64,000 bases of DNA from Minisyncoccota bacterium (GCA_036517155.1 DATDXY010000009.1:2141-66140); one strand, 5' to 3'. Counted from the stretch's first letter, positions 15,652-18,329 are shown. The notes: a model not told the origin generated them from the sequence alone. A program made the numbers and translations.

Positions 15652-16962
15652 CTATTGAAGTTGTAAGAGTCGAATACGAACGTTTGTACCTGCGGAGAGT
15701 CCATTAGTTTTTATGTCAATGTGGGGATATTGTCCGCCACCCCCACAGCAAGAAGGACCAAATCCGTCAATTAATGCATAGCCACCAGAGGTGTTGCTGA
15801 GAGTTAATGTTGGTATGAGAATTCTAGTATCACCAAATGGATAGGTGTAGTCGTTGAAACTTATGGCATAAAGGTTGGTTCCAGATAAAGAATAAGTTAC
15901 GTCATAGACGACTGAAAAACCTCCTGGCCAGCTAGTCCGACAGTCATTGCCAATGCAAACCCCAGACTGACCCTTTACGTAACCCGCGACATCAAGTTTT
16001 TGGGTTGGGCCTGCGGTGCCAATGCCAACGTCGCCGGAACTGTTGATCCGCATTGATTCGGCCACGCCTGATTTGGTAAAAAAAGCAATCGTGCCCTTCC
16101 GACTCCCATTGCCACTTGCTTCATCGGTAGAAGCGGCGATCGCAGTAGTCACATCATTGGTCGAATTGTTAAACCAGATAGTACCAGTGACGTTACCATT
16201 CACTGTGGAGCGATTCCGGAAAGTAATGGCAGGAGAGGGGCCACCCAGCACAGTGCTATTGTTCAAGCCATCTATTCTAAGAGTACCTAAGCCAGTTGAA
16301 TAAATATCTAAGTTATAGGAAGGGGCCGCGGTACCAAGGCCGATATAAGTGCCATTATCAAAAATTTGAGAATTACCAATAGTTGTGCCTGCTGTAAATT
16401 TAGCCATATAATTTGTAGAACCACTTCCAGATAATCCGCCGCTTGCTGTTTGCCAGCTACCTAATCCAGCCGCATCTGAAGTAAGTACTTTTCCGGATCC
16501 TGGCGTACCACCAGTAATTTTTACTTGGCCGTTTACTTCAAGTTTTGCTCCAGGATTTGCGGTACCAATGCCGACATCTCCTCCTGATTTGATGGTTATC
16601 CTGGCTGCGTTCGAGGTAAAAATACGAAAATCATGGGCTGAAACCATCCCCAATACTCCGCCAGCGCCATTTTCATAAGCCCCAAACTTAGCAGTGGCGC
16701 CGCTACCGCCGCTATCTTCTACCCGAATTTCCGGATTGCCAGTTCCAATAAATCGTCCAATAACGCTATTGCCCGTTACATCCAATTTATAAGTTGGCGT
16801 CATGCCAATACCAATATTGCCAGAACTATCAGCAGTGATGCTCGCAGCGCCGCTCGGGGGATTTTGAGATGGATTGTTCCAGGCAAAAGTTTGAATCGCG
16901 AGCAATGAGCCAAAAATCAAAAGAAAAACAAATACTCTTTTATTAAAATATTTTTTATTCAT
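15652..16962 (-). CDS. secreted Gly-rich repeat protein (tail-fibre/beta-helix-like), paralog B
   Basis: Signal peptide ...AIQTFA|WNNPSQNPPSG; repeated GNIGIGxTPTYKLDV / GDVGIGTANPGAKLEVNGQVKITGG motifs; C-terminal CIGNDCRTSWP. Confidence 0.6.
   Translation of the reverse strand: MNKKYFNKRVFVFLLIFGSLLAIQTFAWNNPSQNPPSGAASITADSSGNIGIGMTPTYKLDVTGNSVIGRFIGTGNPEIRVEDSGGSGATAKFGAYENGAGGVLGMVSAHDFRIFTSNAARITIKSGGDVGIGTANPGAKLEVNGQVKITGGTPGSGKVLTSDAAGLGSWQTASGGLSGSGSTNYMAKFTAGTTIGNSQIFDNGTYIGLGTAAPSYNLDIYSTGLGTLRIDGLNNSTVLGGPSPAITFRNRSTVNGNVTGTIWFNNSTNDVTTAIAASTDEASGNGSRKGTIAFFTKSGVAESMRINSSGDVGIGTAGPTQKLDVAGYVKGQSGVCIGNDCRTSWPGGFSVVYDVTYSLSGTNLYAISFNDYTYPFGDTRILIPTLTLSNTSGGYALIDGFGPSCCGGGGQYPHIDIKTNGLSAGTNVRIRLLQLQ
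16352..16557. repeat. 206-bp segment near-identical (1 mismatch) to 17638..17843 within paralog gene
   Basis: Direct string comparison: ccattatcaaaaatttgagaattaccaatagttgtgcctgctgtaaatttagccat...caagttttgctccaggatt in both; only ctgaagt vs ccgaagt differs. Confidence 0.85.
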
Positions 16963-18329
16963 TGGATTCTAATTGCTTGTACGCGTACCGTTGAATTCGA
17001 AGATAATGAATACGTACTCCATTCGATTCTTAAGCATTGTATTCCACCACCACAATATTCAGTACCAACTTTATTGATAAATGCGATTCCTCCAGATGTA
17101 TTACTGACTGAAACGGTAGCCACAAAATGACGTACTTCACCAATTGGATATGCATAGCCAGTTGCCCAGGAGTAAGTTTGAGTTCCAGAAATAAAGTTAT
17201 TAGTAAGGTCCGCGACCACCCCAAAAGAAGGAGATGAACTTGGCCAGCTAGTCCGACAGTCATTGCCAATGCATAATCCCGTACCCTTGACATAACCATT
17301 AGCTTCAATTTTTTGAGATGGGTTAGTCAACCCCACGCCCAAATTGCCATTACTCAATAAACGCATGGATTCTTGAAGACTATTGCTATTCAATGTATGG
17401 AAGACCATACCGACTTGTCCTCCTGTAGATTCGTGAGCAGTTCTGATTTTTCCTACCGTGAAACCAGTATCGTTACCACCGCCATTATCGCCAAATTCTA
17501 AAGCCGCTCCACTTCCGACTGGACTCACGTAATGACCAGCAGTAATTCGTAAGACAGGAGTTCCATTCGCATTAACAACATTAGTTACAGCATGTAGTTT
17601 CGCTAGTGGATTGTTGGTACCAACACTCACATTTGTTCCATTATCAAAAATTTGAGAATTACCAATAGTTGTGCCTGCTGTAAATTTAGCCATATAATTT
17701 GTAGAACCACTTCCAGATAATCCGCCGCTTGCTGTTTGCCAGCTACCTAATCCAGCCGCATCCGAAGTAAGTACTTTTCCGGATCCTGGCGTACCACCAG
17801 TAATTTTTACTTGGCCGTTTACTTCAAGTTTTGCTCCAGGATTAGTAGTTCCAATCCCCACATCACCAGAGCTGTTGATCCGCATGGATTCCGTTGCATT
17901 GGATTTAGTAAAGAAGGCAATGGTGCCTTTGCGGTTGTCATTACCGGCAGCATCGTCAGCAGAAGCGGCAATGACCGCGGTTACATCGTTGGTAGAATTG
18001 TTAAACCAGATAGAGCCGACTACATTACCATCAACAAGGGAACGATTTCGGAAGGTGATCGATGGTGAAGCCCCACCCAATACCGTGTTGTTACTCGAGC
18101 TATCAATGCGAAGATTAGTTGTTCCGGCAGAGTAGATATCTAGATTATACGTAGGGGCAGCCGTACCGAGACCGATATTACCTGCGCTATCAGAAAATAA
18201 AGACCCGACACCACCCGGAGGATTTTGGCCAGGATTGGTCCAGGCTAGAACCAATCGAAAACTCAAAAAAGTAACAATGAAAAGAGTCGCAACGAAAAAA
18301 AATTTGTTGGTAATATTTTTTGGAATCAT
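16959..18329 (-). CDS. secreted Gly-rich repeat protein (tail-fibre/beta-helix-like), paralog A
   Basis: Signal ...RLVLA|WTNPGQNPPGG; same motif family; 4-nt overlap with paralog B (operon). Confidence 0.6.
   Translation of the reverse strand: MIPKNITNKFFFVATLFIVTFLSFRLVLAWTNPGQNPPGGVGSLFSDSAGNIGLGTAAPTYNLDIYSAGTTNLRIDSSSNNTVLGGASPSITFRNRSLVDGNVVGSIWFNNSTNDVTAVIAASADDAAGNDNRKGTIAFFTKSNATESMRINSSGDVGIGTTNPGAKLEVNGQVKITGGTPGSGKVLTSDAAGLGSWQTASGGLSGSGSTNYMAKFTAGTTIGNSQIFDNGTNVSVGTNNPLAKLHAVTNVVNANGTPVLRITAGHYVSPVGSGAALEFGDNGGGNDTGFTVGKIRTAHESTGGQVGMVFHTLNSNSLQESMRLLSNGNLGVGLTNPSQKIEANGYVKGTGLCIGNDCRTSWPSSSPSFGVVADLTNNFISGTQTYSWATGYAYPIGEVRHFVATVSVSNTSGGIAFINKVGTEYCGGGIQCLRIEWSTYSLSSNSTVRVQAIRIQ
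17638..17843. repeat. 206-bp segment near-identical to 16352..16557
   Basis: as above; additional shared 32-mer tggccagctagtccgacagtcattgccaatgca at 15926..15957 and 17241..17272. Confidence 0.85.

Follow-up and report, generated by a model that had tools for sequence, protein, structure and literature searches.

This locus raises the question of how two fibre-like proteins encoded side by side came to share a nearly identical segment in otherwise diverged genes, and what kind of protein they are. The pair resides on the chromosome of an ultra-small, uncultured CPR (Patescibacteria/Paceibacterota) bacterium, in a 64-kb stretch of DNA that was analysed as a whole (the window) and that carries housekeeping genes, tRNAs, 23S and 5S rRNA and RNA polymerase. 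Gene B (16959..18329) encodes 456 aa (NCBI HEY4499779.1, from a Candidatus Paceibacterota MAG) and gene A (15652..16962) encodes 436 aa (NCBI HEY4499778.1). Both genes, and all features described below, lie on the minus strand. The start ATG of gene A lies over the stop TGA of gene B in a 4-nt ATGA overlap, and B and A are therefore probably co-transcribed. ORF calls and alignment agree with the coordinates, protein lengths, overlap and tandem paralogy given in the initial annotation. The GC content of the two genes is 43–45%, compared with 43% for the window, and glycine makes up 16.3% of the A protein and 13.8% of the B protein.

Each protein consists of a leader, an N-terminal motif, a shaft module, a core module, another shaft module, a neck termed CIG and a tip. 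The shaft modules on either side of the core are M2' and M3 in gene B, and M1 and M2 in gene A. M1 (16582..16821, residues 48–127 of A) is weakly similar to the other modules, and M3 (17328..17615, residues 239–334 of B) is weakly similar to M2 (27% aa). M2 (16015..16347, residues 206–316 of A) and M2' (17847..18179, residues 51–161 of B) are homologous, with 77% aa and 70% nt identity and a pS of 0.79, indicating saturated synonymous sites. This homology, which spans 331 nt at 70% and had been missed initially, is non-colinear: nt 617–947 of gene A correspond to nt 152–482 of gene B. The same shaft module thus follows the core in A and precedes it in B.

The core modules contain a 206-nt block, located at 16352..16557 in gene A (residues 136–203) and at 17638..17843 in gene B (residues 163–230), where it encodes NPGAKLEVNGQVKITGGTPGSGKVLTSDAAGLGSWQTASGGLSGSGSTNYMAKFTAGTTIGNSQIFDN. 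Alignment confirms that the two copies are identical at 205/206 nt. The single mismatch (16477 T versus 17763 C) reads A in gene A and G in gene B on the coding strand and is synonymous. The longest exact repeat within the block is 125 nt. Similarity continues around the block, giving 252 nt at 94% (16330–16581 and 17616–17867), with ~70–80% identity in the 46 nt around the block and a gradual decay into the flanks. At the 70–78% identity of the other alignable parts, stretches of 125 or more identical bases would be expected 6e-17 to 4e-11 times in the gene, which excludes a chance origin.

The remainder of the genes is clearly diverged, as had been reported. While pS is 0.02 in the block, it is 0.67–0.89 in every aligned A/B segment outside it, except for the CIG neck; the value for the N-terminus is 0.67. 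Judged by these comparisons, A and B are old paralogs away from the block.

A related genome (L039) provides a reference for the age of the identity. Its gene order is the same (Germane, Cob_adeno_trans, MazG, fibre, AhpC, Cys-rich protein, Zip), and the flanking genes are 67–72% identical to those of the window. The syntenic site contains one fibre gene, which has an A-like tip and a core in the corresponding position. At the nucleotide level, this core is only 78% identical to the core of either window gene. Together with a pS of 0.02 in the block and saturation elsewhere, this indicates a recent, non-reciprocal exchange, and the block can be read, as originally suggested, as the footprint of recent ectopic exchange (gene conversion). 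Two copies alone cannot give the direction or the number of events.

A second shared word, which had been described as a 32-mer, is exact and encodes CIGNDCRTSWP, but its length is 33 nt (15925..15957 in gene A and 17241..17273 in gene B). It forms a disulfide-type neck where the shaft meets the tip. The pS of the neck, a short segment that holds this 33-mer, is 0.43. The neck peptide of L039, CIGSDCRTSWP, is nearly identical, yet 5 of 10 identically translated codons differ from the A copy; the identity between A and B therefore does not reflect a universal nucleotide constraint.

Other origins of the block have to be considered. The initial annotation had named an assembly artefact, a collapsed repeat, as what would refute its reading; a chimeric repeat, or two alleles of one gene from co-existing strains placed in tandem, would be further forms of it. 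Assemblers do struggle here: three contigs (L002–L004) start 58–61 nt inside the block, and chimeric sequences appear in a protein-level assembly. However, contig breaks at this point are what a true repeat would produce. The window, ERZ27254767 (k141_271058) and ERZ4903072 (k141_1426446) all contain the two copies and the B/A junction, in the same B-then-A arrangement and with the same single mismatch. The last comes from a different sample and is 99.5% identical overall, with differences near the contig ends only. The longest exact repeat is shorter than the k of 141 used in those assemblies, the ATGA junction is found in five contigs, and assemblers do not make diverged sequence identical. 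With both copies in at least three assemblies, the block is confirmed at the assembly level, and we give an artefact very little credence. A DGR with template and variable repeats deserves practically no weight, although DGRs are reported from CPR and abundant there, the repeats are of ~200 nt and nearly identical, and the lone difference, A versus G on the coding strand, is of the adenine-mutagenesis type. One difference does not make a pattern, and both copies are in frame in the most conserved shaft module, encode identical peptides and lie outside any C-terminal lectin-type variable region. The window ORFs that were scanned and the called genes with Pfam hits around the locus included no reverse transcriptase. 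We rejected a DGR target gene on this ground and for the position of the repeats in the constant shaft.

It is also conceivable that one gene acquired the core de novo, by a recent cassette insertion or module shuffling through illegitimate or microhomology recombination at the capping loops that close the shaft modules, a process that would also have permuted M2. The module order differs between A and B, homologs contain 0 to 3 or more cores at varied positions, and the block ends adjoin capping-loop codons. The gradual decay of identity across the 252-nt region, however, fits a context that was already homologous, and the single fibre of L039 has its core in the corresponding position. We therefore consider insertion improbable. 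It differs from conversion in the prior state only, and both amount to recent ectopic copying.

Gene conversion between A and B had further been called ongoing, and the proteins variable. This is not borne out by the available copies: the two genes are identical to those of the window in 6/6 fetched locus copies (of 9 contigs recorded with A and 6 with B), and the available contigs apparently come from one population. The survey of strain variants proposed for finding recombinant alleles yielded two candidates only. In P0001, the block connects an N-terminal half from A with a C-terminal half from B. P0002 corresponds to A except for nine additional B-like codons that follow the block. Both come solely from SRR3989344 'SRC' entries, and a look-up found no contig on record for either. 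We take these entries to be protein-level (PLASS) assemblies, which makes P0001 uninformative; P0002 offers no more than a hint that a longer conversion tract exists in the population. In the JGI metagenome collection, an exact 41-mer of the block had no match.

The shaft repeats indicate the family to which the proteins belong. A strict capping-loop pattern (GxVGIGTxxPxxKL) occurs three times in A and four times in B, and a fourth loop in A, GNIGIGMTPTYKL, was recognized by eye. This motif equals the capping-loop consensus of MAT fibres, V-G-G/N-pi-x-x-P-x-x-x-L (PMC10769870), and the Gly-rich repeats of the GN(I/V)G(I/L)GT type noted at the outset can thus be identified as the MAT/S74 capping loop. 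In a phmmer search of the PDB, the B protein matched only Bd2133 (8OND, 1.6e-8) and Bd1334 (8OML, 1.3e-4); the A protein matched 8OND with 2.8e-7. A family profile matched five PDB sequences, all of them Bdellovibrio MAT fibres, with a best value of 6e-24. PHROG tail-fibre families (9942, 18345) also match, at 1e-12 and 1e-17, and tblastn gave remote matches to tail-fibre or S74 genes of cyanophage and Roseobacter phage. These searches agree with the earlier comparison of the repeats with phage tail fibres, and A and B can be described as beta-rich, modular, tail-fibre-like proteins with a predicted secretion leader. By their sequence relationships, A and B belong with the 'mosaic adhesive trimer' (MAT) fibres, which resemble phage tail fibres.

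Domain databases contributed little on the two proteins themselves. Pfam and NCBIfam gave nothing usable for A and B, with no Pfam match even at E = 1, and the same threshold revealed no Peptidase_S74 (SDxxxK chaperone) in either. Peptidase_S74 is present in the homologs P0005 and P0033. The C-termini of the homologs are swappable and include Peptidase_S74, Shufflon_N, Cys-rich tips and a tail-collar-like end, recognized by eye in P0015, for which Pfam gave no match. The AlphaFold monomer of B, based on a 51-sequence alignment, is of poor quality (pLDDT 60, pTM 0.29) and was left out of our fold claims. A Foldseek search with this weak model placed Bd2133 and Bd1334 on top, below threshold (E = 2.5e-3).

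Kinship with phage proteins raises the possibility that the pair is left over from a prophage and encodes tail fibres of a phage or tailocin, and not cellular adhesins. The PHROG and tblastn matches point this way, as do the many homologs named 'tail fiber'. Nevertheless, both proteins have Sec-type leaders by inspection, while virion tail fibres assemble in the cytoplasm and no export signals are known from them. No phage gene was found among the ~30 larger ORFs of the window that were scanned or are on record. The locus is syntenic in L039, between MazG and AhpC with flanks ~70% identical, and the GC content of the genes matches that of the window. IMG/VR contained no close relative and gave one remote match only. 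A phage origin of the genes is thus very unlikely.

The closest known system is formed by the MAT fibres of Bdellovibrio bacteriovorus (Bd2133 and Bd1334), with which a cellular predator uses receptor-binding fibres of the phage type (Caulton et al. 2024, PMC10769870). They share with A and B the homologous shaft with the same capping loop, a signal peptide (a predicted leader in A and B), and a mosaic build in which a conserved shaft carries exchangeable beta-sandwich tips of a non-S74 type. In both cases, several genes per genome are encoded by a bacterium living on other cells. A and B differ in being less than half as long (436 and 456 aa versus about 600–1900 aa) and in lacking the ~130-aa beta-rich N-terminal domain of MAT fibres, which is replaced by a Pro-rich CPR motif of 12 aa (~35 aa elsewhere). 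Their tip fold has no match among the solved MAT tips. The envelope of the encoding organism differs as well; CPR are generally thought to have no outer membrane.

Phage fibres and tailspikes with an S74 chaperone, such as the T5 L-shaped fibre pb1 (4UW8) and the K1F endosialidase (3GW6) (PMC10769870), have triple-beta-helix-type shaft modules with capping loops, an arrangement also predicted for A and B, and many A/B homologs end in Peptidase_S74. Unlike these, A and B lack S74, carry export leaders and are located among housekeeping genes; identity to the phage proteins is ~30% over parts of the shaft. A third group, named 'tail fiber domain-containing proteins' in the databases, is found in Bacteroidota and other phyla. 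It has the same core (GQVKITGG..GKVLTSDA.GLA.WQ) and the same capping loops, but differs at the N-terminus, which by eye is a plain signal peptide or some other domain, and mostly carries S74 or other tips.

Tip A (15655..15927, residues 346–436) is a predicted beta-sandwich, to which the L039 tip is 73–74% identical; tip B occupies 16962..17243 (residues 363–456). Each has ~90 aa, and they share 41% identity with a pS of 0.70. On this evidence, the tips are anciently diverged and not mosaic. The tip model is all-beta with a pLDDT of 77 and a pTM of 0.69. A profile search of 1.84e9 representative proteins found only three real tip relatives. In one of these three, P0131, the A-like tip is attached to a different shaft. 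Structure searches with the tip gave nothing significant, with a best E of 0.23 in the PDB and of 0.02 in BFVD. Comparisons with Helix pomatia agglutinin (TM 0.36–0.41, E = 0.4) and with H-type lectin proteins of BFVD (E = 0.04–0.2) were below significance.

We consider it likely that B and A are a co-oriented Paceibacterota pair of Sec-exported MAT-type fibres, the core of which was recently copied between old paralogs. The leader would end at Ala↓Trp, with the arrow marking the predicted cleavage point, and be followed by the Pro-rich N-terminal motif. The shaft would be built of ~80–110-aa beta modules, each closed by a capping loop (G-x-[VI]-G-[IL]-G-T-x-x-P-x-x-K-L), with the two-cysteine neck CIGNDCRTSWP and a ~90-aa beta-sandwich tip after it. 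Beyond leader cleavage, we infer trimer formation, surface display, ligand binding and host attachment, and each of the two different tips would presumably have its own ligand on the cell on which this episymbiont lives. Homologous recombination between paralogs with permuted modules (M1-core-M2 in A and M2'-core-M3 in B) would recently have copied the 206-nt core module from one gene to the other, and the 33-nt neck is possibly a second, shorter tract. As a result of core copying and the neck tract, conserved DNA would flank each variable cassette, an arrangement that allows modules and tips to be swapped in this family. Because the module that was exchanged is a constant one and the best conserved of the shaft, conversion homogenises here and does not diversify.

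Concerted evolution by gene conversion between paralogs is known from tufA/tufB of Salmonella, pilE/pilS of Neisseria and the vlsE cassettes of Borrelia. There, as in A and B, non-reciprocal copying leaves a sharply bounded, near-identical tract. A and B resemble tuf in homogenising a constant module, and unlike systems of antigenic variation they show no silent cassettes and no sign of high-frequency switching. The process itself is textbook material; its value here is that it marks the constant parts (core and neck) against the free parts (flanking modules and tips).

The N-terminus sets the pair apart from the known MAT fibres. The leader and motif occupy residues 1–40 of B (18210..18329), with a basic n-region, an h-region, the boundary VLA↓W and the motif WTNPGQNPPGG, and residues 1–38 of A (16849..16962), with a basic n-region, an h-region, TFA↓W and WNNPSQNPPSG. 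The sequence (N/T)NP(S/G)QNPP(S/G)G described earlier is thus present after A↓W in both proteins. The leaders, called by inspection, have a basic n-region, a hydrophobic stretch of 15–20 aa and small residues at –1 and –3 before the Trp. A helix spans residues 6–28 in the B model. Only ~20 residues separate the leader of A and B from their first capping loop, and the N-terminal module of CPR relatives is ~35 aa long.

The motif had been regarded as unusual and as a possible sorting or processing signal. It is indeed unusual, conserved and nearly restricted to CPR, but no C-terminal sortase signal accompanies it: A ends in VRIRLLQLQ and B in VRVQAIRIQ, with no LPXTG and no C-terminal hydrophobic segment, and a sortase substrate was rejected. 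A non-exhaustive scan of the window's proteins brought up no sortase. Type IV pilins and pseudopilins were discarded as well, the hydrophobic stretch preceding A↓W and G-F-x-x-x-E being absent. The motif may be a sorting signal, or it may do no more than cap the mature fibre at its N-terminus. A literature search on the motif strings and on tail-fibre-like adhesins in CPR found nothing relevant. The table of diverse MAT proteins in the MAT paper contains no CPR member (PMC10769870), and the known means by which ultra-small CPR cells recognise and hold their hosts are largely limited to type IV pili (PMC9894109, PMC12206443).

The A↓W-T-E/N-P motif and the A/B tip were each seen almost only in Patescibacteria records. 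Thirty-two loci were recovered via the N-terminal motif; a profile search of a word-indexed protein database with the 44-aa N-terminal alignment gave 7 short fragments only. Together with A and B, these 32 loci show that CPR genomes carry short MAT-type fibres with an N-terminal module of their own and rare tips, which are candidate host-binding proteins. A more far-reaching and tentative idea, which we hold to be possible but rather doubtful, is that the leader with the A↓W-T-(E/N)-P-x3-P-P-x-G-N element constitutes a dedicated export and anchoring module, near-exclusive to CPR, that heads a large, hitherto undescribed class of surface mini-fibres, often occurring in tandem pairs and forming a host-recognition repertoire, with B/A as one such pair with two different tips. 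The members would have one to few capping-loop modules, a CIGxDC neck, freely swapped tips and, in the pairs, constant parts kept identical by gene conversion, and would play the part in CPR that MAT fibres have in Bdellovibrio. The motif A↓W-T/N-x-P-x3-P-P-x-G is also present at the head of small secreted proteins that have a single capping loop or none.

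Genes A (15652..16962, 436 aa) and B (16959..18329, 456 aa) are neighbouring ORFs on the minus strand, with the TGA stop of B overlapping the ATG start of A. The two share a near-identical minus-strand block of 206 nt (16352..16557 and 17638..17843), in which the sole mismatch is T at 16477 versus C at 17763. The wider similarity extends over 252 nt at 94% identity. A second shared word, an exact minus-strand 33-mer (15925-15957 and 17241-17273), encodes CIGNDCRTSWP, and no third paralog is present elsewhere in the 64-kb window. The shared block is not a product of chance: given the 70-78% identity of the other alignable parts, the expectation of a 125-nt identical run is 6e-17 to 4e-11. 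The tandem genes and their shared segments are thus confirmed at the positions described in the initial annotation.

Comparison at the DNA and protein levels reveals that A and B are modular, with an order that is not colinear. Gene A encodes a leader, a Pro-rich N-motif, shaft module M1, the core, M2, a neck and tip A. In B, the leader and N-motif are followed by M2', the core, M3, the neck and tip B. M2 (A residues 206-316) and M2' (B residues 51-161) are homologous (77% aa and 70% nt identity), but M2 sits 3' of the core and M2' sits 5' of it; M1 and M3 are weakly related to M2. Each shaft module is closed by the motif G-x-[VI]-G-[IL]-G-T-x-x-P-x-x-K-L. Set between two such capping-loop motifs, the core module is the identical block, and the 33-mer forms a two-cysteine neck where the shaft meets the tip. 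M2/M3 and the tips, the variable cassettes, are therefore each flanked by the most conserved DNA.

Codon analysis indicates very different ages for these segments. Across its 68 codons the block is 100% identical in amino acids with a pS of 0.02, whereas pS reaches 0.79 (saturated) between M2 and M2', 0.67 in the N-terminus (43% aa identity) and 0.70 in the tips (41%). A and B are therefore old paralogs, with permuted modules, that carry a young block: the core was recently copied, and the neck is exactly shared. An outgroup, L039 (Ga0082335_1000239, 146 kb), which a search of metagenome contigs with the aligned tips brought up, bears this out. Its gene order matches that of the window (Germane-domain protein, Cob_adeno_trans, MazG, fibre, AhpC, Cys-rich protein, Zip), with flanking genes 67-72% identical, and it encodes a single fibre of 338 aa with an A-like tip (73% identity). 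The A and L039 tips resemble each other more closely than either resembles tip B (only 41-47% identical to A-type tips), suggesting that the paralogy predates the split of the two species. The L039 core is 78% identical in nucleotides to either window core; the A and B cores are 99.5% identical to each other. The L039 neck peptide, CIGSDCRTSWP, is nearly the same as that of A and B, yet 5 of its 10 identically translated codons differ from the 33-mer.

On these codon and outgroup comparisons, the near-identical cores of these old paralogs bear the mark of concerted evolution through gene conversion, and the proposed conversion footprint holds (block pS 0.02 versus 0.79 in M2/M2', L039 core equidistant at 78%). 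Conversion here homogenises a constant module, and the ongoing diversification claimed with it is not demonstrated. Insertion of the block as a cassette is rather unlikely; it would be set apart from conversion solely by the state of the gene before copying. It is very improbable that the block is an artefact of assembly. Three contigs do start 58-61 nt inside the B copy, but this is the expected effect of a genuine repeat on an assembler. The host organism is recorded as a Candidatus Paceibacterota MAG (HEY4499778.1, HEY4499779.1), and exact copies of A and B are on record on 9 and 6 contigs, respectively. Besides the window, two assemblies reproduce the B-then-A order with both block copies, ERZ27254767 k141_271058 and ERZ4903072 k141_1426446, making three in all; the second of these two is from a different sample and departs from the window only near the contig ends. 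Megahit could pass through the repeat because no exact stretch in it exceeds 125 nt, which is below k = 141.

Two database proteins resemble recombinants of the pair. P0001 begins with the N-terminal half of A and, after the block, carries on as the C-terminal half of B, and P0002 is an A sequence with nine additional B-like codons (NVSVGTNNP) after the block. Both exist solely as SRR3989344 'SRC' entries, with no contig on record. We take this catalogue to be a protein-level (PLASS) assembly, able to jump across the 68-aa identical stretch, and P0001 is for that reason uninformative. P0002 hints at best at a longer conversion tract in the population, or else is an assembly chimera.

The mosaic adhesive trimer (MAT) fibres of Bdellovibrio are trimeric, intertwined β-helices on the predator surface that bind prey glycans (PMC10769870). 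They have a conserved N-terminal domain, a capping-loop consensus V-G-G/N-pi-x-x-P-x-x-x-L and exchangeable tips, including an S74 chaperone, TNF-like, C-type lectin and new β-sandwich folds (PMC10769870). Pfam and NCBIfam searches of A and B returned nothing. Two PHROGs tail-fibre families were matched, 9942 (6e-12 and 9e-17) and 18345. Against all PDB sequences, B matched only Bd2133 (8OND, 1.6e-8) and Bd1334 (8OML, 1.3e-4), and a profile of 51 family members gave five matches, all of them MAT fibres (best 6e-24). Judged by sequence, the shaft is homologous to MAT and tail fibres, and the Gly-rich repeat is the MAT capping loop. The 431 database homologs have the same mosaic build, with a core module GQVKITGG..GKVLTSDA.GLA.WQ in variable copy number and, in some, a CIGxDC neck. 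Their C-termini include Peptidase_S74, Shufflon_N and Cys-rich tips and, by eye, a tail-collar-looking end. Identity to real phage fibres is just ~30%, and IMG/VR yielded one remote match. The earlier description as tail-fibre-like surface proteins stands; rather than a novel type of system, A and B are a Patescibacteria (CPR) version of a known kind, the MAT or tail-fibre-like adhesins.

The tips are rare and divergent. A search of 1.84 billion representative proteins with a profile of both tips yielded only three true relatives: a fragment of B; P0132, a sequence match to the C-terminal portion of the L039 fibre; and P0131 (247 aa), which has the same N-motif and an A-like tip on a different shaft of W..ITGKPAGFADDVDN repeats. 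The tip is thus a swappable cassette in its own right. An AlphaFold model of neck and tip, based on a 4-sequence alignment, is an all-β sandwich (pLDDT 77, pTM 0.69). Foldseek found no significant match to it (PDB E >= 0.23, BFVD E >= 0.02); weak, non-significant ones were H-type lectins, R-pyocin fibre tips and tailspike C-termini. Full-length B is modelled poorly as a monomer (pLDDT 60), as expected for an obligate trimer.

The most interesting residue of the finding is the N-terminal module, which is near-restricted to CPR genomes, and the mini-fibre family that it heads. Among fetched homologs starting with Met, 37 carry the N-motif [hydrophobic stretch]-A|W-(T/N/Q)-(E/N/G)-P-x3-P-P-x-G inside the first 110 residues, and most of these continue ...G-N-V-x-A-P-x-N-V-G-x3-Q-x-K-x-G-x-L. 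No Pfam model matches several of the motif-carrying CPR homologs, and literature searches found no published mention of the motif. A genome-wide scan with the module retrieved 32 loci (L007-L038), nearly all labelled Patescibacteria (Nealson-, Giovannoni- and Wildermuth-bacteria, Paceibacterota, Minisyncoccia, 'Saccharibacteria'). Three lie in records labelled as non-CPR, L010 (Gammaproteobacteria), L018 (Elusimicrobiota) and L031 (Pirellulales), and may be mis-binned; the first, an 886-kb chromosome (OZ246416.1), looks like a mislabelled small-genome organism. Module-bearing genes are often small (141-355 aa), the small products having one or zero capping loops and unrelated Cys-rich or β tips. 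In many Patescibacteria genomes, these small secreted proteins have a leader followed by A-W-T-E-P-x3-P-P-G-G-N-V-P-A-P-x-N-V-G-x3-Q-x-K-x-G-x-L. The genes often form paralog pairs, either next to each other or separated by a few kb; the members of a pair share 90-96% DNA identity in their 5' parts and differ in their tips. Examples at L015 (5122..6504), L020 (5881..8864) and L025 (5504..6426) show that the pattern of the window recurs in CPR.

Relative to the Trp of the motif, residue -1 is Ala and residue -3 is small, which would fit cleavage by signal peptidase I before the Trp. The Pro-rich segment may anchor the fibre, a role proposed for the 130-aa N-domain in Bdellovibrio. A reading as pilin leader was rejected, as was that as sortase substrate, since A and B carry no C-terminal sortase signal and no sortase was found among the window ORFs scanned. 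We propose that A and B would be exported by Sec, cleaved at A|W, trimerised into short fibres and displayed on the cell, where the two tips may bind two different host-surface ligands. RecA-type recombination between the tandem genes would keep the core (and neck) identical, and these conserved sequences could double as crossover sites at which modules and tips are exchanged.

The A/B locus is chromosomal and syntenic. The window is a stretch of ordinary CPR chromosome, encoding 10 tRNAs, 23S and 5S rRNA, rpoB/C, TsaD, RecG, DprA, topoisomerase I, FtsW, ParB, AhpC, SOD and the CCA-adding enzyme. Prophage and DGR readings were rejected because the ORFs scanned include no phage gene and no reverse transcriptase. 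With DprA (55818..56843) and RecG (8802..10988), the neighbourhood encodes functions in DNA uptake and recombination that homologous exchange requires. At 31816..35121, a 23S rRNA precedes the 5S, with a tRNA-Tyr upstream on the opposite strand and no 16S rRNA anywhere within the 64-kb window; the rRNA genes appear unlinked. The 23S gene measures 3092 nt against the 2925-nt Rfam model, and the ~170 nt extra may be an insertion. A secreted protein of 746 aa without a Pfam family (12471..14711, plus strand) is made up of some six Cys-rich units in tandem (PGGC...C.xYC....EC..FA...GF) followed by Gly/Pro-rich and Gln/Tyr-rich tails, and is conserved at the syntenic position in L039 (5882..7780, 632 aa). 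Further probable envelope or surface proteins contain a lamin-tail domain (50734..52143), DUF4012 (59614..61602) and fn3 (62225..64000), the last running past the window end.
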